A stretch of DNA of 64,000 nt from Wandonia haliotis (GTDB lineage Bacteria; Bacteroidota; Bacteroidia; Flavobacteriales_D; Crocinitomicaceae), in NCBI RefSeq assembly GCF_039523435.1, contig NZ_BAAAFH010000001.1, positions 1 through 64,000 of the forward strand, in the 5' to 3' direction. Under the pieces are notes generated by a model that did not search any database, had not been told where the DNA came from, and saw only the letters and a list, made by a program, of their open reading frames with translations. Shown piece by piece: positions 940-21,433 of this stretch. The position numbers were made by a program, and so were the translations under genes. How positions within the stretch are numbered: the first letter of the stretch is position 1; each line of letters begins with the position of its first letter.

Positions 940-3069
940 CTAGTTTTTAACAACTCTGGAAGTATGAAGTAGAGCATCATTTTGTTTAACGACTACTAAA
1001 TAGAAACCTGAAGGTAAATAGCTGGTATCAAGTGTTCCGGATTGATTCCCGGCTGTTGTCAGAAGAACACGTCCGTTGATATCTACAAGCGAAATGGCTA
1101 CATCACTCGTCTGAAGTTCAACTGGTATTGACAGTGAAATAGACTCCTCAAAGGGGTTTGGATAGACTTTTATAGCAAGTGATGGTTCTTCTGTCTCTGC
1201 AAATGCTTCATCTTCTTCAACCGAAGCTTCCTTTTTCATGAGAACCAGTAACTGACATGAAAATAATTGCGAACCGGTTAAATACTGAGTATATCCCAAT
1301 AACGGTCTGAATCCATTCCCCGTCTGAGCCACTGCATACATATTAGCACCACTTCCTCCATTTCCATTAATTTTTAAGACTTTATTATTTGCCAGGCAAA
1401 TCATCTGGGTATTACCATAAAAATCGATATCTGTAACTGATGAGGCAAAATGTGCACTTCCTTCTAATTGTGTAGCATAAGCACCACTTGTCGTTACAAA
1501 ACCATGTAGAACTTCTGTAGCATTAAACATATTAGCACCTGTTCCCCCACTATTAAATACTTTCATGATTTTCCCGTTTCCAAAGGTTATAAATAACCGG
1601 TTTCCGCTTGGATTATGCGTAATTTTATTGATCGCTGACGAATAATTACTGTAGCCCACATAATAGTTGTAAGAAGGTATACCACTAAATCCGGATGCAT
1701 TTTCACTTACCGCAAACATATTAGCACCACTACCACCAGTACCATTAATCTTTAAAATCTTACCGTTATAAAAACCTAAAAACAGATATGTTCCATTACT
1801 ATACATTTCAGATACAGGTCCCATAAATTTGGAGTGTCCACTATAAAAATTATAAGAAGGAATAGTACTATAACCGCTTGTTGTTTCAGTAATCGCAAAC
1901 ATATTGGCTCCGGTTCCTCCTGTATTATTAATCTTCAACAATTTGCCATCCAGGGTACTTACAAACATGAACGAACCAACTGAAAACACTTTATTAACAG
2001 GAGATAAAAAATAAGAGTGTCCGGAATAGTAATTATAACCCGGAAGACTGGAAAATGAAGTTGGCGTTTCCGTAATCGCAAACATATTAGCACCACTTCC
2101 ACCAGAACCATTAATCTTCAACATACCTTTATTGATACAGGAAATGAATAATTTATCATCCTTGATAAATAAATCCGTAATGCCGCTCAAAAACTTATGA
2201 TGCCCGCTGTAATAGTTATAAGGGCTTATGTTTGCAAAACCATTTGTAGACTCTGTTACTGCAAACATATTAGCACCGCTTCCTCCCGTTCCATTGATCT
2301 TTAGAATCTTCCCGTCATTGAACGAAATAATTGTTTTTCCATCACTGGTATACACCATATCTGTTATTGGTGTATTAAAATCGTTATAGCCAATTAAGTT
2401 CGAATATCCCGGAAGATTCGCCGGCGGATTAAATGATAATCCCCAAACATTATCTCCTGAAGACCCCAAACTAGAGAACTTATAGATCATTCCTGCATTT
2501 TTCTGAACAAAAAAGTACTCTCCCGGTACAAATTGATAAATTTCATTCACATCCTGACATCGAGAAAATGAATTATCGTAGTCACTTCCTGAGCATACTG
2601 AATACAGACCGTCATCAGGACGAGTTACGACTATTGTATTCGTTTGTTCCGTTACAAGTGTCTCAACATAAAATCCTAAAATATACCTACGAATAATTAT
2701 TTTGGCATAATAATAACCGGATAATGGCTCAACATTATCAAATGTGTAGTATATGTTTGGACATATTATAAGCCCGGAGCAATTAATCTCCTGATCACCG
2801 GAGTTATACGTCTTTGAATCAATTTGATTACCATTTCGATAAAAATTGATTTCATACGAAAAACTTTGGGCACTTGAAACATTTGATTCGTATGTCCTGA
2901 TTGAGTTAAAGAAAAAATTTATAGGCTGAATGGATGAACAAGTTGCAAAATTGATATTGTCTTGTGAGCCATTCACAGAAATAGTAGACAGAGTTTTAGT
3001 CTGCGCATTCGAAGTAATCGAAAAGAGTAACACAATGCATAAACATGCGATTTGTTTAAATTTAATCAT
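940..3069 (-). CDS. Secreted repeat protein with a T9SS C-terminal sorting domain. It carries about 7 tandem ~45-aa repeats containing GxGGxGANMFA motifs, probably beta-propeller-like
   Basis: N-terminal signal peptide (MIKFKQIACLCIVLLFSITSNAQ). Repeated KINGTGGSGANMFA[VI]TE units. C-terminal VYPNPFEESISLSIP...YLVVVKQNDALLHTSRVVKN resembles a Por/T9SS CTD. Confidence 0.7.
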   Translation of the reverse strand: MIKFKQIACLCIVLLFSITSNAQTKTLSTISVNGSQDNINFATCSSIQPINFFFNSIRTYESNVSSAQSFSYEINFYRNGNQIDSKTYNSGDQEINCSGLIICPNIYYTFDNVEPLSGYYYAKIIIRRYILGFYVETLVTEQTNTIVVTRPDDGLYSVCSGSDYDNSFSRCQDVNEIYQFVPGEYFFVQKNAGMIYKFSSLGSSGDNVWGLSFNPPANLPGYSNLIGYNDFNTPITDMVYTSDGKTIISFNDGKILKINGTGGSGANMFAVTESTNGFANISPYNYYSGHHKFLSGITDLFIKDDKLFISCINKGMLKINGSGGSGANMFAITETPTSFSSLPGYNYYSGHSYFLSPVNKVFSVGSFMFVSTLDGKLLKINNTGGTGANMFAITETTSGYSTIPSYNFYSGHSKFMGPVSEMYSNGTYLFLGFYNGKILKINGTGGSGANMFAVSENASGFSGIPSYNYYVGYSNYSSAINKITHNPSGNRLFITFGNGKIMKVFNSGGTGANMFNATEVLHGFVTTSGAYATQLEGSAHFASSVTDIDFYGNTQMICLANNKVLKINGNGGSGANMYAVAQTGNGFRPLLGYTQYLTGSQLFSCQLLVLMKKEASVEEDEAFAETEEPSLAIKVYPNPFEESISLSIPVELQTSDVAISLVDINGRVLLTTAGNQSGTLDTSYLPSGFYLVVVKQNDALLHTSRVVKN

Positions 3070-3797
3070 AATTAGAATTTTTAGTTATAGGTTTTGAATT
3101 ATTTACTGTTATCAAGATGTTATACAACACCTTTTTTCTTTTTACATATTCACCGAGAGAGTTATTCATTTCTCTCAATGATTCTGCACACATTCAGTAG
3201 ATATAAAAATTTCCTTTGTGTCCTTCTTCCCTACTCAATTTTCAGGAAATTTCACTGTTATCAGAAAATTCAGTATTCAGAGTCGTTTACATACCGATAA
3301 GAAAACACGTGTAGTAGGCGTAAAATTCTTAGAGGCAGAAATCCAGAAAAGTAGTATATCCGTTATTAATATGCGAGTTGATAAGGTTAATTTTTTGTTT
3401 AGTATTCTGTTTAATTAATGTGAAAGCAATGTAGCAAAAAAATTGAACAAAAAATATTTTCTCACATTTTTATATTTCAATACTCATTAAAAAACAAGCT
3501 GTTAAGAATTAGCGTAAAGCTGTTCATACACTAAAAATTTTAGGAAGAGCCTTCAATTTCATATATACACATTCATCGTAACGCTGTAACACAAGCCTAA
3601 GCATTACACTACCAAAATAACAGGAGTTTGATACTTTGAAAAATCAAGAAGTAGATAAATTGCTTTTTAAAAGCAAACCCATATTACAAATGACATCAGA
3701 ATAAAAAAATTCGATTTACAACTGGTTTATCCTCATTTTTTTTGATTTTTACGCAAAACTTGTCATTTAATTCAAATCCACTATTGTTTAACTGAGC

Positions 3798-8808: not shown

Positions 8809-10158
8809 ATGAAAAATTTAGTACGCATCTTATGTGTTTTTGGATTCGCTTCTTTTAGCTTAAAATCCGCTACAGCACAATGTATAACAGCTGTTGACCT
8901 TGACGGAACCAATCAGTTCTTATATGGTTCTAACTTTTTACAGTATGATTTTTCACAGTTCACTATTGAAATGTGGATCAATTCCGATGATTATACAGCC
9001 AATGATATTTACGTAAATTGGAGGAACGGCTCTTATATTGCTCTCGGAGGATGGGCAGCAGATGGAAGCTTTAATACGTGGGCAGAAGGATTAAGTCCAA
9101 ATTCAATCAATTCTGGTCCCGGAACGGCTCCAACCCCGGGGGAATGGCACCATATTGCCTATGTTTTTGACGGATCGAATCAAATTATCTACATCGACGG
9201 TACTGCAGTTACAACAGTTCCTACAACCGGGAGCGTTGACCTGAATGCTACAACCCAAATGATTGGTTTAGTAGTCGGTGCGCGCTTCGATCAAGGTCAA
9301 CAATTCACGAACACAAAGTTTGATGATGTACGAATTTGGAATTCAGCCAGAAGTAGTACCGAAATCAATGCAACTATGAATACCGATTTGAATGGAAACG
9401 AATCAGGATTGGTAGCATACTACCGTTTTGAGGATGGTGTTGGTAGTACAATTGCTACCGATTTGACCAGTGGAGCGAATCACCTTACACTAACAAACAT
9501 GGATCCTGCGACTGATTGGGTGAACGGCGTATTTTCTTCTGATGTACATTCAACAGCAACTATTGAAAGTTGTGGATCTTTGACCTGGATAGATGGGAAT
9601 ACCTATACTACAGATAATAATACGGCAACCTATCTGTATTCCGGTGGTGCTGTCGGAGGTTGTGATAGTATTGTCCACTTGGACTTAACAGTTCTGGATC
9701 CCGTCGATAATACAATTACAACAAGCGGTCCTTCATTTTCCGCAAACGAAGTATCTGCAGGTACACAGTACCAATGGGTCGATTGCGATAATGGTAACAC
9801 TCCTATTCCCGGTGAAATCGCTCAAACATTTACTGCAACTCAAACAGGTTCGTACGCTGTAGTTGTAACCGGACAAAATGGTTGTAGCGATACTTCTGCT
9901 TGCTCAAACATAACGATTGTTGGATTAGATGAAATTAACCCTGACCATCTAAAAGTGTCTATCTATCCTAACCCGGCAAGTTCTGTTCTTTCTGTAAAAG
10001 GTTTAACAAGTGATGAAAACTTCACCATTCTGAATTTACAAGGTGAGACCGTGCATAATGGCACTACAAACACTACCATTACAGTAGATTATTTGGCCAG
10101 CGGTACCTACTTGCTGAAATTTGAAAACAGACCGGTCGTATTGTTTGTCAAAGAATAG
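8809..10158 (+). CDS. LamG/concanavalin-like domain protein with a T9SS C-terminal domain
   Basis: Signal peptide. LamG_3-like segment (FTIEMWINSDD...DDVRIWNSARS). C-terminal IYPNPASSVLSVKGL...YLLKFENRPVVLFVKE. The likely ATG start is 6 nt into the listed ORF, which begins at TTG. Confidence 0.7.
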   Translation: MKNLVRILCVFGFASFSLKSATAQCITAVDLDGTNQFLYGSNFLQYDFSQFTIEMWINSDDYTANDIYVNWRNGSYIALGGWAADGSFNTWAEGLSPNSINSGPGTAPTPGEWHHIAYVFDGSNQIIYIDGTAVTTVPTTGSVDLNATTQMIGLVVGARFDQGQQFTNTKFDDVRIWNSARSSTEINATMNTDLNGNESGLVAYYRFEDGVGSTIATDLTSGANHLTLTNMDPATDWVNGVFSSDVHSTATIESCGSLTWIDGNTYTTDNNTATYLYSGGAVGGCDSIVHLDLTVLDPVDNTITTSGPSFSANEVSAGTQYQWVDCDNGNTPIPGEIAQTFTATQTGSYAVVVTGQNGCSDTSACSNITIVGLDEINPDHLKVSIYPNPASSVLSVKGLTSDENFTILNLQGETVHNGTTNTTITVDYLASGTYLLKFENRPVVLFVKE

Positions 10159-13431: not shown

Positions 13432-15156
13432 TTACAATTCTTCACGTTCAAGCCACTCCAATTCCCCCGGTAGTTCCATCGAGCAAAACTCCAGGTGAAT
13501 CACACGTCTTCGTTTTTGATTTTGCGCTTTGGAAGAAGCGTGTAATAAAAGTGGTTTCATCAACTGAACACCTCCCTCCTGCACTTCTATAGTAACAGGA
13601 GTAGCACTGGAAATAATAGCTTCTTTTTCTCCATCCGAATAACGCTGACTGTGAGAACCGGGTATAACCTTTAATGCACCATTTTTGACCGTAGCCTGAT
13701 CCAGATGCACACGAATACTAAACGTACATTTCAGAATTTCCTCGGGCGGGCATACACTCGTAATTCCATTTCTGTTGGTCCAGGAAGAAAAACCGTCCGT
13801 CTCTATCCGTTTGTTTACATTGACCGGAACATCCTGATGCCAGGTAACATACCAATTATCCGTATCAGGCTTATCAAAATAGATGGCTTTCGTCAGAAAA
13901 GCATTCTCATCCACAACCTGTACAATTTTTCTCAGGTTCCTATTCAATACAATTTTTTTCAGTTCGGGAATATCTTTCAATAACGTCCGCTTTCCAAAAG
14001 TCGGCTCATCGTGTTTATCAAAGTAAATATAAATCTTCTTCCCTATTTCCCGAATTTCCTTCCGCGTATATATATCGTTCAAAACAACATATCCATTCCG
14101 CTCCAGTTTCCTTGAAGCGGCTACCAAGTTCGGTTGGTGTAAATGTGTTCTGTATTGATCCAGCGCATTTTGTAGCTGATCCTGTATCCTCCTCCGGAGT
14201 GAACTGGGTTGTAGCACCTGAACCGTATCACCAAATCCCAAAATCAATCGTTCCAATTCAAAGTTATGGTGTACAAAAAGTTCCAGAATGATTCCATCAT
14301 CCGGCAACTGCTCCAGTACGCGTTGCGAATGGTGCAACGGCTTGGTTACGAGATATGGAGCATTTGAAGCATCTACTTTCAAAATCACCCGGTCAACATA
14401 TTTCTCGTCCATTACTGTTACACCTATCGTATTTTTATAATACGCATCTCCATCAAAAGGCTCTTCTAAAGCCTCCTTTTTCAGATCATACTCAACAGAC
14501 ACTATTCTATCCAGAGCAAGGGTTATAATACTCCCATTGCGTTTGTTTTTTCCCACAAGAAACCACCTGTTGTTATATTCTTTCAAAATAAACGGATAGA
14601 AAGTCATTTCCGAACTCTCTTTAGCTGAAAAAGATTTGTAGCGAATCTTCAAAACCAACTTTTTCACAATAGCCTGGTACAGCGCGTCCAGATGTTCCAG
14701 TCCTTTCAATCGCTCATTTTTGTCTAAATGAATGACTGCCGGTTGATGTGTTTTCTCTGTATAAATCCGATCTTCCAGTTTTTGGATAATGTCCCCCAAC
14801 TCCGAAAACAAAGAAAAATCTCTGAATTGCTTCAACATTTCCACCGATTCCGTAAGTACCTGCATATCTCCCTCATTCAAAGGAATATCTGTCATTCTGT
14901 AATCCGGGTCATCGTATTTATAATATTTCTTATCGTAAACCACAATAGGCGCATTATACCCTAGCTTATCACTCCTCATCAATTGAATATCCAATTGAAC
15001 CGTCCGTTTACTCACATTAACATCCCTGCCTTCGTATTCGTACAAAGCATCAGAACAAGCCTCAATAAGATCTTCTAATGTCCACTTATGGTACTGATTT
15101 TGCAGACATTTATCAATTGTTTTGTAACGTATCAGTGCATTTTTATTCTGAGCCAT
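13432..15156 (-). CDS. WYL-domain transcriptional regulator (wHTH-WYL-WCX) fused to a C-terminal PhyH-family 2-oxoglutarate/Fe(II) dioxygenase domain
   Basis: The N-terminus matches WYL regulators (NALIRYKTIDKCL HTH; NRWFLVGKNKRNGSIITLALDRIVSVE WYL core; WCX-like region). The C-terminal ~230 aa carry the PhyH hallmarks WHQD (His-x-Asp), GALKVIPGSH, a distal His and RRVIHLEF. It is divergent from rtcB. Confidence 0.75.
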   Translation of the reverse strand: MAQNKNALIRYKTIDKCLQNQYHKWTLEDLIEACSDALYEYEGRDVNVSKRTVQLDIQLMRSDKLGYNAPIVVYDKKYYKYDDPDYRMTDIPLNEGDMQVLTESVEMLKQFRDFSLFSELGDIIQKLEDRIYTEKTHQPAVIHLDKNERLKGLEHLDALYQAIVKKLVLKIRYKSFSAKESSEMTFYPFILKEYNNRWFLVGKNKRNGSIITLALDRIVSVEYDLKKEALEEPFDGDAYYKNTIGVTVMDEKYVDRVILKVDASNAPYLVTKPLHHSQRVLEQLPDDGIILELFVHHNFELERLILGFGDTVQVLQPSSLRRRIQDQLQNALDQYRTHLHQPNLVAASRKLERNGYVVLNDIYTRKEIREIGKKIYIYFDKHDEPTFGKRTLLKDIPELKKIVLNRNLRKIVQVVDENAFLTKAIYFDKPDTDNWYVTWHQDVPVNVNKRIETDGFSSWTNRNGITSVCPPEEILKCTFSIRVHLDQATVKNGALKVIPGSHSQRYSDGEKEAIISSATPVTIEVQEGGVQLMKPLLLHASSKAQNQKRRRVIHLEFCSMELPGELEWLEREEL

Positions 15157-15412
15157 AATCTGTAGTATCGTTCTAAAATGACTATTCGATAGTCAAAGTT
15201 AACAGCTTATTTCATTAAAAATAATGTCTCTCCTTTTGGAGAAAACAAATTTTACTCTACATTTGCAACCGATTTAAGTTTGAAGTTTACTATTAACAAA
15301 TAAAAAACCAAAGCGAAATGTTCAGTTTAATTAACATATTCTCCAGCGAGCCAGGTCAGGGACGTGTGCTTTGCGTGCTTTGGAATTCATAGATTAAAAT
15401 ATTCTGTTATGA

Positions 15413-15446
15413 AAGTCCGAAGCAATAGTTTCGGACTTTTTTTTAT
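15413..15446 (+). terminator. Intrinsic-terminator-like hairpin (AAGTCCGAA / TTCGGACTT) plus a T8 run, inside the wyl-rtcB intergenic region on the plus strand
   Basis: 9-bp perfect stem, 8-nt loop and TTTTTTTT read directly. No ORF lies upstream on this strand, so it may terminate a small RNA or leader. Confidence 0.5.
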
Positions 15447-15636
15447 CTCCATTTTACGGGTTGTAAGTTCGAAACATTGAATCCATCAATTTGTGTTACG
15501 TATTTACTTTAAAAAAATGTAAGTCAAAATTTTTGACAGTAGGTTAAGCTACTGTACTCTATTATTTTTTGAATATGAGATCTAACTCTGTAGAGGATTT
15601 TTCTCATCATTCACAGTATTTATTATTTCAGATAAA

Positions 15637-17037
15637 ATGGGAAAGAAAATTAAAGGGAAAGATCTGGTTAATCTGGGTTTTCCACAAAACAATACAATCA
15701 ATATCGCTTTGGGACAAATCAGCAGGTACCGTAAAAAGTGTGACAAACAAAAATTGCTGAATGAACTTAGTGATGTCATTGCCAATCAGGACTCTTATAA
15801 AGACGACCCTGTATGGGGAAAAATTATTGAAGCAATGACGGATCCGGTAGAACTCGAAATGCACACCTTACAATCACATCGTGTTCCTTTCGAAATATTC
15901 GGAGAAAATGAAATTGGCGATCTGGCAAAACATCAGTTTTATGGTTCGTTGAAACTTCCGATAGCGGTACGGGGTGCACTCATGCCTGATGCTCATGGTG
16001 GTTACGGACTACCAATAGGTGGAGTACTTGCAACAAAAAACGCAGTAATTCCTTATGGTGTAGGTGTTGACATCGGCTGTAGAATGGCGATGTCAGTGTT
16101 CCCCCTCCCTGCCAGTCATTTCAAAGGTCGAACGGATCAAATGAAAAAGATACTCTCCGAACATACTAAATTCGGTATGTACGAAACTCATAGGGTAAAA
16201 CATGATCACCCCATATTTGAGAGAAGTGAGTTTCGCGAAATTCCGTTGTTGAAGCAGCTTTTCAAAAAAGCTTACCAACAGTTAGGAACATCAGGAGGAG
16301 GAAATCATTTCGTTGAATTCGGAGTAGTGACTATGCGGGAAGATCTCTATCTAGATGGTAAGCTTCAGCTTCCTCAGGGAGAATATCTGGCTTTGCTGTC
16401 GCATAGTGGTTCCAGAGGGTTGGGAGCCAATATCGCCCAGCATTATACGCATCTGGCAAAAAAGCAATGTCACTTGCCTAAACAGGTACAGCACCTTGCC
16501 TGGTTAGATATGGATAAACACGATGGAATGGAGTACTGGATTGCGATGAATCTGGCCGGTGAGTATGCCAAGGCGTGTCATGATAATATCCATTCCAGAA
16601 TAGCCAAAGAGCTCGGAACTCAAATCACTGTAACCATTGAAAACCATCATAATTTTGCATGGAAAGAAAAAGTTAACGGGGAAGAGTGTATCGTTCACAG
16701 AAAAGGTGCTACACCTGCCGGAAAAGGAGTTCTCGGAATTATTCCCGGATCAATGACTGCTCCCGGATATATTGTAAGAGGCCTGGGAAATGAAAATAGT
16801 TTGAATTCAGCTTCTCACGGTGCCGGACGTATGTTCTCCAGAAGTCAGTGTAAATCCAAATTCACGAAGAGTGAGATCCAAAAACTACTCCAAACCAATG
16901 GAATAGAGTTAATCGGAGGGAATGTAGATGAAGCACCGATGGCGTATAAAGATATTCATACAGTCATGAACAACCAACAGGAATTGGTAGAAGTGATTGG
17001 TGAATTTCAACCAAAAATCGTTCGTATGGACAAATAA
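15637..17037 (+). CDS. rtcB: RNA-splicing ligase RtcB (3'-phosphate/2',3'-cyclic phosphate RNA ligase)
   Basis: Canonical RtcB motifs (MPDAHGGYGLPIGGV, GGGNHF, HNFA, ASHGAGR). 466 aa. Confidence 0.9.
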   Translation: MGKKIKGKDLVNLGFPQNNTINIALGQISRYRKKCDKQKLLNELSDVIANQDSYKDDPVWGKIIEAMTDPVELEMHTLQSHRVPFEIFGENEIGDLAKHQFYGSLKLPIAVRGALMPDAHGGYGLPIGGVLATKNAVIPYGVGVDIGCRMAMSVFPLPASHFKGRTDQMKKILSEHTKFGMYETHRVKHDHPIFERSEFREIPLLKQLFKKAYQQLGTSGGGNHFVEFGVVTMREDLYLDGKLQLPQGEYLALLSHSGSRGLGANIAQHYTHLAKKQCHLPKQVQHLAWLDMDKHDGMEYWIAMNLAGEYAKACHDNIHSRIAKELGTQITVTIENHHNFAWKEKVNGEECIVHRKGATPAGKGVLGIIPGSMTAPGYIVRGLGNENSLNSASHGAGRMFSRSQCKSKFTKSEIQKLLQTNGIELIGGNVDEAPMAYKDIHTVMNNQQELVEVIGEFQPKIVRMDK

Positions 17038-17047
17038 CAAAAACAAA

Positions 17048-17761
17048 ATGGACACACAAATTATAACCCTATCATCAGGAAGAGGCCCGGCAGAGTGCTG
17101 CTGGGTCGTTTCCCAGGTTCTGAAGCAAATACTGATCGAAATCAGGAGTATGGGCTATACCTATCACATTATTGACGAACAACAAGGAGACCTACCGGGG
17201 ACGTATCACTCAGTAAGCCTGTCTGTTGCCGGAAATGAATTGATTCATTTGCAGAAATCATGGGAAGGAACAATCCAGTGGACCGGAACCTCTATGTACC
17301 GCAAACATCATAAACGAAAAAACTGGTTTGTAGCCGTACAATTCAGAAAAAATACTGATTTGTTAAGTATTGATTTGAATCAGTTAAAATTTCAAACCAT
17401 GCGAAGCGGAGGAAAAGGCGGTCAACATGTTAATAAAGTCAGTACCGCCGTTCGTGTTACCCACACTCCTACCGGAATCAGTGTTACCAGTAGCACGCAT
17501 CGTTCCCAGTTACAAAATAAAAAACTGGCATTGCAAAAGCTGCAATTAAAATTGGAGGAGCAGCAACTGGAAGAAGCGGGGAAACAAGCTAGTAGGAACT
17601 GGCAGGAGAAAATTGAAATTGAAAGAGGAAATCCCATCAGAGTGTTTAGTAGCCTACAATTCAAGGATTCGGCAAATAAAAACAATAAACAGTTTGGCTC
17701 CCGAAGACAGCTACTAAAACAGGATTTACGAACAAGATTAAACGAAACCAAAGATGAATAA
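17048..17761 (+). CDS. prfH: Peptide chain release factor H-like protein (class-I RF homolog with a GGQ motif, lacking the codon-recognition N-domain)
   Basis: SGRGPAECCW N-terminus and RSGGKGGQHVNKVSTAVRVTH GGQ peptidyl-hydrolase motif. About 237 aa from the internal ATG at 17048. The ORF begins within or overlaps the 3' end of rtcB. Confidence 0.8.
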   Translation: MDTQIITLSSGRGPAECCWVVSQVLKQILIEIRSMGYTYHIIDEQQGDLPGTYHSVSLSVAGNELIHLQKSWEGTIQWTGTSMYRKHHKRKNWFVAVQFRKNTDLLSIDLNQLKFQTMRSGGKGGQHVNKVSTAVRVTHTPTGISVTSSTHRSQLQNKKLALQKLQLKLEEQQLEEAGKQASRNWQEKIEIERGNPIRVFSSLQFKDSANKNNKQFGSRRQLLKQDLRTRLNETKDE

Positions 17762-18275
17762 ATACCTTTTGGAGGCACTGGATGCTTACCCTTTTGATCT
17801 GGCGCAAGCTTTTGAAGCAATGGAATACGCCTTGAGTAGTGATAATCAATGTCCCCATACACTTTGTCTGTACGGAAGAATGTATGCAGAACAGCTACAG
17901 GACTACCCCAAAGCTATCAGTTATTTTGAAGAAGCACTTCAAAGTAATCTCTATGCCATTCAGGTCTATCCGTATTATATTAATGCGCTATTAAACTATG
18001 AAGAATTTGAAGCTGCAAAAAAATTAATTGACTTTGCCTTAGATGTAAAAGGTGCAGATAAAGGGGGACTTCTTCTTCTCAAAGCTTTGTATTTTGAGTA
18101 TAAAAAGGAGTACAACGAAGCCCTCAACACACTAAAAGAATCAGAATCATTTAGTTTTAATCAAGACTTCAAAAACTCGTTAAAAGAAGCTAAGACCAGG
18201 ATTGAAGAGAAAAAATCACCTCAAAAAGAAGTGAACAAAACGAAAAAAAAGAAGGTTACGAAAAAGAAATCATAA
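17754..18275 (+). CDS. Hypothetical alpha-helical TPR-like protein with a lysine-rich C-terminal tail, embedded between prfH and the second rtcB
   Basis: ATGA overlap with the prfH stop. Helical repeat pattern (YPKAISYFEEALQ...). KKKKVTKKKS tail. No recognised family. Confidence 0.5.
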   Translation: MNKYLLEALDAYPFDLAQAFEAMEYALSSDNQCPHTLCLYGRMYAEQLQDYPKAISYFEEALQSNLYAIQVYPYYINALLNYEEFEAAKKLIDFALDVKGADKGGLLLLKALYFEYKKEYNEALNTLKESESFSFNQDFKNSLKEAKTRIEEKKSPQKEVNKTKKKKVTKKKS

Positions 18276-18384
18276 TTCTTTTTGGTTCTACGCAAAATAA
18301 TTGCGCACATCCAGTTAACCTTTGTCCTGTTCTTATATTCAACGATTCATAAATCCTCCGTCGGCAATAGGGCTGGCGGAGTAA

Positions 18385-19767
<1,383 letters not shown>

Positions 19768-19947
19768 ACACTTCACACGACAATAAAACAATCGTTCTTT
19801 AAAATATTGTGTCACAACACAAAAGAAGTTGAATAGGTTACCGTATAAGTCCCCGATTCTGGTTTCTGAATAACCAAATAGTCTGATTCAGCATTGCTGC
19901 TTCAGGTGCTACTTACACTTTAACCATCAACACCTATAGCTATATGT

Positions 19948-20080
19948 TGAAGGTTCGAGTCCTTCCTGACCAAAAGGTTAGTATCTCAATTGGTAGAGAA
20001 ATAGCTTGAATTGTGTGGGTTCGAGCCCCACTCTGCAAAAGCGGATAGCTCAATTGGTAGAGCGCTGAATAGTGGATTCA
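19948..20080 (+). ncRNA. Cluster of tRNA-like modules that do not form canonical cloverleaf tRNAs. It holds two T-arms, two D-arm-like elements and an acceptor-plus-anticodon-like 5' half. Candidate tRNA-mimic ncRNA or tRNA pseudogene debris
   Basis: T-arm 1 is GAAGGTTCGAGTCCTTC followed by CTGACCA at 19948-19971. A D-arm follows at 19983-19998 (TCTCAATTGGTAGAGA). T-arm 2 is GTGGGTTCGAGCCCCAC at 20014-20030. The 5' half GCGGATAGCTCAATTGGTAGAGCGCTGAATAGTGGATTCAG lies at 20040-20080. Acceptor strands do not pair in the normal order. AGGTTAG (19974-19980) can pair 6/7 with the preceding CTGACCA, a permuted arrangement, and no anticodon arm follows it. Confidence 0.45.
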
Positions 20081-20338: not shown

Positions 20339-21433
20339 ATGAAAAGGGTAAAAATAAGCTCACTAAAAATTGGATTGATCTATAAAAATGAAAATTTTAA
20401 CCGGGTAACACTGGAAGGAAATCATTGGCTAGGTTTCAATGAGACAATTAGATCTTATGATCGATTAAAAATTTATGAAACTCTTCCTGATATGGAGCTG
20501 GTATCTAAGAACAAGGTATTCTCGGAAAATACTTGTGAAATTAATGTAAGAGAGAATGAAATAGCCTTGATCTTTGTTCGAAATCATTTTAATCAGGTAT
20601 TAACTACTGGGAGTTACTTTTACTTCAAGGGAAATACAGATATACAAGTACAGATTCATGATTTAAATTCTACAGAAGAAATTACTTCAATTGATACAGC
20701 CATATTGAGAAAACAATCCGTTATACATCATGTAGCAATTTACAAAGTAGAAAGCTATGAGAAAGGATTGTTATTTCAGAATGGAAAGTATATAAAAGAA
20801 CTTTCCGGAGGAAGTTTCGCTTACTGGTTAGGTTCAAAATCACTTGAATTATTAAAAATTGATTTGCGAAATACACAAATGGATATTTCAGGACAGGAGC
20901 TATTAACAAAAGATAAAGCAGCTGTACGCATAAATTTCCAATTAGAATATCGCGTAACTGACTGTTTTAAAGCTCTACTCGAAAACAAAGATTATTTGAA
21001 ACAACTCTACTCCAAAGGTCAGCTTGCCTTGCGCGAGTTTATAGGAACATTAACGCTAGATGAACTATTGGAATCAAAAGAAAAAGTTGCCACATCTGTT
21101 CTGGGGGCATTACAGCCAAGTACTGATGCACTTGGCGTTTCCATTACAGATGCCGGAATCAGAGACATCATACTTCCTGGTGAGGTACGAGAAATTATGA
21201 ATCAGGTTTTGATTGCAGAAAAAAGAGCTCAGGTTAATGTTATAGCCCGAAGAGAAGAAACTGCTTCCACCAGAACAATGTTAAACACAGCCAAACTAAT
21301 GGAAGAAAACGAAGTACTGATGAAACTAAAAGAAATGGAATACATTGAAAAAATAGCAGATAAAATTGGTGAGATCAAACTTTCGAGTGGAAGTGCAGTA
21401 ATTGATCAACTTGCAAAAATTCTCACCAAATAA
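20339..21433 (+). CDS. SPFH/band-7 (stomatin/prohibitin-like) domain protein with an uncharacterised N-terminal half
   Basis: C-terminal segment (TKDKAAVRINFQLEYRVTD...REIMNQVLIAEKRAQVNVIARREE) resembles an SPFH domain. Confidence 0.6.
   Translation: MKRVKISSLKIGLIYKNENFNRVTLEGNHWLGFNETIRSYDRLKIYETLPDMELVSKNKVFSENTCEINVRENEIALIFVRNHFNQVLTTGSYFYFKGNTDIQVQIHDLNSTEEITSIDTAILRKQSVIHHVAIYKVESYEKGLLFQNGKYIKELSGGSFAYWLGSKSLELLKIDLRNTQMDISGQELLTKDKAAVRINFQLEYRVTDCFKALLENKDYLKQLYSKGQLALREFIGTLTLDELLESKEKVATSVLGALQPSTDALGVSITDAGIRDIILPGEVREIMNQVLIAEKRAQVNVIARREETASTRTMLNTAKLMEENEVLMKLKEMEYIEKIADKIGEIKLSSGSAVIDQLAKILTK

Follow-up and report, generated by a model that had tools for sequence, protein, structure and literature searches.

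A WYL-domain regulator fused to a PhyH-type dioxygenase beside RNA-repair genes in Wandonia haliotis and other Bacteroidota

What does a transcription factor beside an RNA-ligase operon gain from carrying a complete dioxygenase, and which genes does it control? The question is posed by one gene in the first 64,000 nucleotides of contig NZ_BAAAFH010000001.1 of Wandonia haliotis (hereafter, the window), which an earlier note, made from the sequence alone, had read as a WYL regulator joined to a PhyH-type Fe(II)/2-oxoglutarate (2OG) dioxygenase. We find that the N-terminal 335 residues of its product represent a Bacteroidota-wide regulator family tied to RtcB genes, that the regulator appears to control RNA-repair genes, and that the dioxygenase is an accessory module and not the core of the system. 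The gene and its parts, numbered along the product, are as follows.

13432..15156, minus strand: whole regulator gene, winged helix-turn-helix (wHTH)-WYL-WCX-linker-PhyH, 574 amino acids plus stop (open reading frame (ORF) list, Pfam, more than 190 orthologues alike)
14887..15156, minus strand: wHTH, approximately residues 1-90, family motif MRSDKLGYNAPI (AlphaFold2 model and Foldseek)
14491..14697, minus strand: WYL domain, residues 154-222 (PF13280, E 1.7e-13, 50.8 bits against a cutoff of 21.8)
14161..14391, minus strand: WCX domain, residues 256-332 (PF25583, E 1.3e-14, 54.7 bits against a cutoff of 23.9)
14104..14160, minus strand: inter-domain linker, residues 333-351, with Tyr335 (end point of unfused orthologues)
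13435..14103, minus strand: PhyH-type Fe(II)/2OG dioxygenase domain, residues 352-574

The gene is a single ATG-started ORF of 574 codons with no internal stops or frameshifts, and the start of its product, MAQNKNALIRY, agrees with the N-termini of orthologues. WYL, WCX and PhyH all score well above their curated Pfam cutoffs, the PhyH match (PF05721; E 1.6e-14, 55.1 bits against a cutoff of 22) running over residues 352-552 and profile positions 2-213 of 213, and PADLOC WYL models also identify the WYL domain (E 1e-27). No Pfam HTH profile matched the regulator at E ≤ 0.01, and the wHTH assignment thus rests on structure prediction: the AlphaFold2 model places helices at residues 5-19, 27-42 and 50-61 and a beta hairpin at 71-81. 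Together, the Pfam matches and the modelled wHTH bear out the N-terminal architecture given by the earlier note. The WYL motifs NRWFLVG and LALDRIVSVE lie at residues 196-202 and 213-222, and seven residues of this domain (Y173, S175, F176, R197, W198, D216 and R217) reach at least 90% conservation both in fused family members and in unfused ones.

Foldseek matched the N-terminal half to DriD, PafBC, BrxR and CapW (E 1e-13 to 1e-7), with an alignment of ∼340 columns to full-length DriD. The whole-protein AlphaFold2 model, built from a 16-sequence alignment, is mediocre (mean predicted local distance difference test score, pLDDT, 72.8; predicted template modelling score, pTM, 0.41) and does not confidently predict how the domains pack; residues 329-355 fall below a pLDDT of 50, as in a disordered linker. 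Within this linker, Tyr335 is invariant in the 16 aligned fusions, and at least 90% of the members of either class, fused or unfused, retain it. Profiles from Pfam and NCBIfam detected no CARF, AAA+ sigma-54 activator or HTH domain of the RtcR type in the regulator.

The C-terminal domain has a PhyH-type fold, and its sole NCBIfam match lies far under the cutoff of that profile. An AlkB-like identity was ruled out by fold ranking, in which the neighbours were small-molecule PhyH enzymes, and by profiles, as no AlkB-family model from Pfam or NCBIfam matched the regulator. The catalytic signature proposed for this domain stood in most respects: the domain is complete and has both the metal triad and a 2OG-binding arginine, but the histidine of its PGSH motif (H502) is no metal ligand. 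The putative ligands are H440 (codon 13837-13839, minus strand), D442 (13831-13833) and H539 (13540-13542), and R550 (13507-13509), 11 residues past H539, is the predicted 2OG-binding arginine. The same 11-residue spacing separates H264 and R275 of human PhyH. These residues sit in the motifs WHQD (439-442), LLLHASS (around the distal H539) and RRR (549-551), while GALKVIPGSH occupies 493-502.

Conservation of the active site was counted in an alignment of 194 long orthologues, of which 190 retain H440, 188 D442, 187 H539, 189 R550 and 188 R551; all five are unchanged in 182 (∼94%). H502 is less constrained (His in 176 of the 194), and H440, D442 and H539 are invariant in a 57-sequence set that includes stand-alone relatives. 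By these counts, purifying selection acts on the metal triad and on the 2OG-binding arginine. When orthologues are compared, the PhyH half and the regulator half are about equally conserved (e.g. 56/56%, 54/56% and 57/52%).

The fusion is widespread. We searched a collection of 5.8 billion proteins with the 574-residue sequence, and in each of the best 120 matches (53-99% identity) PhyH is fused to WYL, nearly always with WCX as well; lengths are 571-591 residues, except for two entries of 538 and 544. Named sources include Fluviicola, Crocinitomicaceae, Winogradskyella, Olleya, Algibacter, Flavivirga, Lacinutrix, Wocania and Thalassobellus, to which a second search added Rufibacter, Aureivirga and a metagenome-assembled genome (MAG) labelled Ferruginibacter. 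Altogether, this architecture is shared by over 190 protein clusters, which come from Flavobacteriales and Cytophagales apart from a few MAGs labelled Aureispira or Ferruginibacter. Their database names are generic only (“WYL domain-containing protein”, “phytanoyl-CoA dioxygenase family protein”). The earlier note had supposed the fusion undescribed, and we found no published description; it is not rare in databases, however, as hundreds of sequences carry it.

Regulator relatives were collected from one genome per species, giving at least 594 loci, of which 80 (L001-L080) were analysed with flanks of up to 8 kb (1.19 Mb in total). These comprise 35 fused and 45 unfused regulators, the former being 33 full-length single-ORF fusions, L024 (an in-frame stop in the linker) and L032 (the gene cut by the contig end). 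Fused loci come from Flavobacteriales, from Cytophagales (Pontibacter, Cyclobacteriaceae, Roseivirga and Parachryseolinea) and from an Aureispira MAG; unfused ones from Aquimarina, Kordia, Flavobacterium, Maribacter, Dokdonia, Saprospiraceae and others. Unfused regulators have 333-349 residues, share 62-71% identity with the first 335 residues of the window protein, and terminate at approximately residue 335, inside the linker region of the fused form. No separate PhyH gene was found in the fetched flanks of the 45 unfused loci at E < 1e-5.

At 94 of the positions 1-340 both classes have the same residue, conserved to at least 90% in each, and at no position was there a fixed difference between the classes that might mark a docking surface for PhyH. 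The wHTH-WYL-WCX machine thus does not differ between regulators that have the oxygenase and regulators that lack it, and the oxygenase is an add-on, because about half of the sampled family lacks it without compensating changes.

In L024, a Bacteroidota MAG, an in-frame TAA at the Tyr335 codon (8999-9001) splits a 333-residue regulator from a PhyH part that has an ATG shortly downstream of the stop; this may be a recent split, a pseudogene or a sequencing error. L051 has a full-length fusion, an operator (described below), an SPFH gene and an RtcB gene in a typical Bacteroidota layout on a contig labelled as an uncultured Comamonadaceae MAG, and was probably mis-binned, the alternative being horizontal transfer.

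The second half of the question concerns the genes under control. Beside the regulator, the window contains the following cluster.

15637..17037, plus strand: RtcB RNA ligase, PrfH-linked, “RtcB1” (PF01139, E 1.7e-81; TIGR03073, 158 bits, below its cutoff), divergent from the regulator
16997..17761, plus strand: PrfH, release factor H (TIGR03072, 221 bits against a cutoff of 166.65)
17754..18275, plus strand: TPR protein (weak TPR matches), which accompanies PrfH in many related loci
18287..18309, no strand assigned: predicted operator tCTACGCAaaataatTGCGCAca, sole copy in the window, between the TPR gene and the second RtcB
18397..19767, plus strand: second, divergent RtcB, “RtcB2” (PF01139, E 9.5e-35)
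20339..21433, plus strand: SPFH/Band-7 protein, last gene of the cluster (PF01145, E 4.5e-27)

The RNA-ligase operon that had been noted beside the gene is thus real, and consists of RtcB, PrfH, the TPR protein and the second RtcB. This linkage extends across the family: RtcB occurs within the flanks of 60 of the 80 loci (24/35 fused and 36/45 unfused), usually divergent from the regulator. RtcB2 orthologues (62-77% identity) adjoin the regulator in 48 loci, as the directly divergent gene in most, and RtcB2-type genes are found in 13/35 fused vs 35/45 unfused loci. PrfH, TPR and SPFH genes are frequent near family regulators, and the TPR gene adjoins PrfH in 12 of the 80. An anti-phage context did not emerge from PADLOC, which gave only generic WYL models on the regulator and matched nothing among its window neighbours.

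SPFH/Band-7 genes are enriched with the fusion (14/35 fused vs 3/45 unfused loci; Fisher p 6e-4, not corrected for phylogeny). Fused loci that lack RtcB in their flanks have no common gene content except SPFH.

A 23-bp palindrome, ACTRCGCA-N7-TGCGYAGT, came to light when the upstream regions of family loci were read. The 80 loci contain 121 sites with an exact copy of its core, CGCA-N7-TGCG, against ∼5 expected by our own base-composition estimate, and the extended consensus is present at nearly all of them. In 57 loci a site lies ≤ 200 bp upstream of the regulator ATG, typically at ∼55 bp. Counted within 400 bp, sites lie before the regulator gene in 62 cases, before an RtcB2-type gene in 43 (median distance from operator centre to ATG, 118 bp) and before an RtcB1-type gene in 9. 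Among the sites without one of these genes are some that precede genes for RlaP nucleotidyltransferases (PF10127, 213 bits; four loci) and TROVE/Ro60 proteins (104 bits; three loci). Fused and unfused loci share one operator sequence, and many loci have two to three copies, 1-7 kb apart. From this co-occurrence (57 of 80 loci, 121 sites), the palindrome is predicted to be the operator of the regulator family.

In L064, L073, L078 and L079 the operator is followed, after 37-180 bp, by the gene for a conserved 205-residue protein with HD-like motifs (HYHDLNH...YHDIIY). It has no Pfam match, and is possibly a further member of the RNA-repair regulon.

The predicted operator in the window reads TCTACGCAAAATAATTGCGCACA and is centred 99 bp before the start codon of the second RtcB, a geometry like that of RtcB2 genes elsewhere. 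A single match is by itself only mildly unexpected, as 11 of 100 shuffles of the 64 kb contained at least one; the weight of this site derives from its position and from the family pattern. No operator was found between the regulator and RtcB1 (15157-15636, 480 bp), even allowing three mismatches, and autoregulation, typical elsewhere, may therefore not apply in the window. In W. haliotis, the RtcB1-PrfH-TPR block seems to have been inserted between the regulator and its usual divergent partner.

Where did the oxygenase come from? Residues 341-574 were scanned against all of 1.84 billion cluster representatives, yielding 2429 matches at E ≤ 1e-3 and 214 at E ≤ 1e-30. The majority of relatives are stand-alone proteins of 230-250 residues, 35-49% identical to the window domain and annotated merely as “phytanoyl-CoA dioxygenase family”; those with named sources (Chryseobacterium, Niastella, Pedobacter, Mucilaginibacter, Spirosoma, Aquimarina, Kordia and Dokdonia) are all Bacteroidota. 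Fused and stand-alone domains have ∼30 invariant positions in common, including FDK 427-429, NW 434-435, HQD 440-442, T460, R482, H484, D486, NG 492-493, PL..H.S 535-541, R550, H554 and E556, and chemistry and substrate class are therefore probably the same in both. The best sequence match of the domain in the PDB is AviO1 (E 2e-4).

We built rough neighbour-joining trees, without support values, of both the oxygenase domain and the regulator half. On the former, 108 of 110 stand-alone proteins form one clade, with all fused domains across that split, suggesting that the domain was probably recruited once from a clade of ∼235-residue stand-alone Bacteroidota enzymes. On the latter, the domain was gained or lost ∼9 times; as the domain tree indicates one origin, we read these changes as mostly later losses. 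The genera named for stand-alone enzymes (Aquimarina, Kordia, Dokdonia and others) and those named for fusions do not overlap in the lists compared. Six stand-alone neighbourhoods (Kordia, Chryseobacterium, Niastella, Aquimarina, Pedobacter and Spirosoma) had no common neighbour, and no RtcB, other RNA-repair or WYL gene.

Three members of the stand-alone clade (P0198, P0338 and P0388) have a hydrophobic N-terminal extension of ∼165 residues, membrane-spanning in appearance, and a membrane-anchored form of the enzyme thus seems to exist.

Natural variants of the fusion bear on what the domain does. In ∼5% of long forms, ligand residues are lost while the PhyH domain is retained, as in P0430 (H-G-T at the triad), P0432 (E-Q-R), L033, P0431 and P0429/L035. 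Three of these proteins group together in the tree, and their dead state is therefore inherited. A second kind of variant, of 387-409 residues, has lost WYL and WCX and joins the same wHTH and a helical linker straight to PhyH, which is then the only candidate input domain on the HTH. It is represented by L086 8001-9209 (Echinicola rosea, CP040106), P0390 and P0211; the E. rosea protein (402 residues) and that of E. strongylocentroti (409 residues), each encoded by an intact ORF, are 59% identical. All three lack the 2OG-binding arginine or at least one triad residue. These variants suggest that the role of PhyH survives the loss of catalysis and that PhyH can replace WYL as the only non-DNA-binding domain.

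The gene for one dead-PhyH regulator (P0432) lies directly downstream of a same-strand TIR_2-domain gene (L087 6683-9701), with RtcB just upstream of the latter on the opposite strand.

The explanation that we tentatively favour, as possible rather than probable, is a trigger-enzyme regulator of RNA repair. By analogy with DriD, PafBC and CapW, a dimer of the regulator would bind the palindrome, its WYL domain would sense damage through a single-stranded nucleic acid, here most likely fragments of RNA or RNA with damaged ends, and the regulator would switch on RtcB/PrfH RNA-repair genes, acting as the functional counterpart of RtcR in bacteria without RtcR. The analogy draws on DriD, PafBC and CapW (PMC10853764, PMC11804915, PMC11662680) and on RtcR (PMC7790460), and WYL domains are reported to bind single-stranded nucleic acids (PMC10853764, PMC11662680). 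The dioxygenase would be an accessory second input of the trigger-enzyme kind, in which occupancy or turnover of a small substrate alters regulator output. Turnover would need Fe(II), 2OG and O2, and this input could couple the induction of RNA repair to metabolic or oxidative state. Transcription factors that double as enzymes are an established class, with PutA, BirA and Ada as examples. The dead-domain and HTH-PhyH variants favour such a regulatory role, and of the two options that the earlier note had offered, an enzyme-coupled sensor fits our results.

Several points count against the trigger-enzyme explanation. We infer DNA binding, the WYL ligand and oxygenase activity alike; an integrated allosteric sensor might leave fused-specific residues in the regulator core, and none were seen; and the whole-protein model, with its pTM of 0.41 and disordered linker, does not place the domains confidently against each other. 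The explanation also names no signal, as the oxygenase clade has no characterised member. The window regulator lacks an operator in its own upstream region, the HTH-PhyH gene of E. rosea no longer adjoins RtcB, and the dead and WYL-less variants are few (∼5% of the sample) and could be decaying genes.

A passenger, an ordinary enzyme with the function of its stand-alone relatives, fused only for co-production with the regulon and without effect on DNA binding or activation, is an alternative that we consider rather unlikely. Its active-site residues equal those of the stand-alone clade, the regulator core has no co-adapted residues, the linker is flexible with no predicted packing, the position of the operator upstream of the regulator in 57 of 80 loci would have the fusion protein co-induced, and fused and free copies occupy different genera in the lists compared, as if the one replaced the other. 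Retained dead domains and degenerate HTH-PhyH proteins are nevertheless hard to reconcile with a catalysis-only role, the window regulator gene has no upstream operator, and an enzyme tethered to a DNA-bound dimer would seem a poor design for bulk catalysis. If PhyH instead served as a structural module, offering an extra oligomerisation or docking surface (e.g. to bridge operators) with its cofactor site conserved for fold stability, the retention of variants with a destroyed triad would follow, and the two to three operators 1-7 kb apart at many loci could be bridged. This we regard as very unlikely, since ∼94% of long forms keep the triad and both arginines, ∼30 positions are shared with free enzymes, and such constraint on the active site lies far above what a scaffold needs.

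The earlier note had also raised the option of a dioxygenase that modifies damaged RNA or nucleotides, which in an Ada-like repair sensor would repair them or make or destroy the WYL ligand. RNA repair by 2OG oxygenases of the AlkB type is known, the gene and the RNA-repair regulon are in physical linkage, WYL domains bind single-stranded nucleic acids (as cited above), and an enzyme that acts on the WYL ligand needs no protein-protein interface, in agreement with the absence of class-specific residues. Our results leave the option unsupported and, in our judgement, improbable: there is no AlkB-type Pfam match, the fold ranking also weakens it, stand-alone relatives with the same active site lack RNA-repair or WYL neighbours in six contexts, and in about half of the family members sampled the regulon functions in the absence of the domain. 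We find it similarly doubtful that oxygenase and WYL share one molecule, such as an oxidised RNA- or nucleotide-derived signal or a modified nucleoside from broken tRNA or rRNA. An oxygenase that created or extinguished the WYL ligand would make the protein a self-contained, enzyme-gated sensor of RNA damage. If true, this would be without precedent both for a bacterial one-component regulator, in being driven by a 2OG oxygenase, and for a WYL factor, in being shown to sense RNA damage.

A joining of two genes in the window by frameshift or misassembly, an outcome that the earlier note had allowed for, has practically no chance of being correct, even if the in-frame linker stop of L024 shows that split versions can occur. 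The ORF is continuous, hundreds of orthologues have equal length, and the same fusion is found in all 120 best matches, drawn from NCBI, JGI, ENA and Logan assemblies, and as a single reading frame in 33 species-representative genomes. These orthologues already refute an artefact, and the two halves are one gene.

The regulator core has the same three domains in the same order as DriD, PafBC, CapW and BrxR (Foldseek E 1e-13 for DriD and 1e-11 for PafBC), and resembles them in a predicted palindromic operator near both its own gene and a divergent target operon, and in a presumed logic in which WYL would read a nucleic-acid damage signal. Sequence identity is, however, only 15-17%; those regulators target DNA-damage or anti-phage genes, whereas the predicted targets here are RtcB, PrfH, RlaP and Ro60, and none of the characterised members has a dioxygenase such as the 235-residue one that follows WCX here. 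RtcR, the CARF-AAA+-HTH sigma-54 activator of rtcBA and rsr-yrlBA-rtcBA in Proteobacteria, is an unrelated protein that offers a functional analogy only: both are encoded divergently from RtcB, RtcR as a dedicated regulator and the present protein as a predicted one, with Ro60/TROVE in some loci and, in the window cluster, YrlA-like modules, but CARF, AAA+ and sigma-54 dependence are absent here, and RtcR has no fused enzyme. CARF and WYL have been proposed as parallel ligand sensors (Makarova et al. 2014, PMC4012209).

The oxygenase domain shares an HxD...H triad, an arginine 11 residues after the distal histidine and an end-to-end Pfam match with small-molecule PhyH enzymes (SnoK, proline hydroxylase H11, AviO1/EvdO/EvdMO1, ThoJ, PHYHD1, PhyH and EctD). 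It differs from them in its low identity (15-20%), its unusually compact size (∼235 residues), its fusion to a DNA-binding regulator and its membership of an uncharacterised clade. AlkB-type demethylases are likewise members of the 2OG-oxygenase superfamily, and a connection with RNA repair is thematically plausible for them, but their profiles do not match here. The likeness to the trigger enzymes Ada, PutA, BirA and NadR lies in the union of a DNA-binding regulator and a catalytic domain in one polypeptide, with no homology. In trigger enzymes, the state of the catalytic reaction can set transcriptional output. We know of no 2OG oxygenase among bacterial one-component regulators.

Among the WYL fusions catalogued in 2014 are nucleases, helicases, Cas3, BRCT and TerB, but no oxygenase (PMC4012209), and a 2019 census of WYL architectures, which displays only classes of at least 100 sequences, mentions none. 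Literature searches for WYL with PhyH, dioxygenase, RtcB or YafY returned nothing relevant, within a coverage that did not include Burroughs and Aravind 2016 on RNA-repair systems. The WYL-PhyH combination and the RNA-repair target of the family are therefore what is new, as the components themselves are known.

Other features of the window cluster accompany these genes. As listed, the PrfH ORF starts with TTG, and its first 41 nt fall within the end of RtcB1 (16997-17037); because homologues align from approximately residue 15-23, the true start is probably the ATG at 17048 (MDTQ...). A longer PrfH-CT subfamily with a C-terminal tail has been described in Flavobacteriia (PMC12829566), and the size of the window ORF, the only feature judged, fits that form.

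Between RtcB2 and the SPFH gene lie two tandem matches to the YrlA tRNA-like module (RF02553), at 19941-20003 (40.4 bits, E 2.5e-6) and 20014-20063 (30.7 bits, E 0.0016) on the plus strand, both under the gathering score of 69; ARAGORN called no tRNA at 19941-20063. A similar match occurs in the fused locus L009 (3219-3283). A Ro60/TROVE gene is absent from the window cluster, but three other loci have a TROVE gene after the operator. In the Fluviicola locus L001, which has a fused regulator, eight tRNA or tRNA-like genes (2117-3279, minus strand; Rfam tRNA, 35-72 bits) lie a few kilobases past RtcB.

Upstream of the RtcB1 ATG (15637) is a conserved structured element at ∼15353-15446 (plus strand), which has no Rfam match. 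Its 5' hairpin shows three pairs with compensatory changes, and its 3' end is a strong terminator-like hairpin, GAAAGTCCGAAGC..GTTTCGGACTTTTTTTT (15411-15446), that is 80-94% identical before RtcB1-type genes in eight other loci (Maribacter, Tamlana and others), where the RtcB1 proteins themselves are only ∼68% identical. The element is a candidate small RNA, or a candidate leader or attenuator of the RtcB1-PrfH operon.

The fusion alone would be a moderate surprise; together with its regulon, operator and series of domain variants, it becomes a well-posed experimental system. Should the domain prove to be a passenger enzyme only, the fusion would be a gene-fusion curiosity, and the regulon and operator would still be useful. 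To our knowledge, every WYL factor that has been studied in detail (PafBC, DriD, CapW, BrxR and an Acinetobacter regulator) answers to DNA damage or to phage, in most cases through single-stranded DNA. With a phylum-wide WYL family connected to RtcB, PrfH, Ro60 and RlaP, the reach of this sensor class would extend to RNA damage. The family is a candidate answer to how RNA repair is controlled in Bacteroidota, which apparently have no RtcR-type regulator at these loci, and the predicted operator makes that model directly testable. In addition, the fusion could disclose what a large uncharacterised clade of small PhyH-like oxygenases acts upon. How an enzyme comes to be recruited as a regulatory input could be learnt from the natural series of regulators with the domain, without it, with a dead copy or with PhyH in place of WYL.

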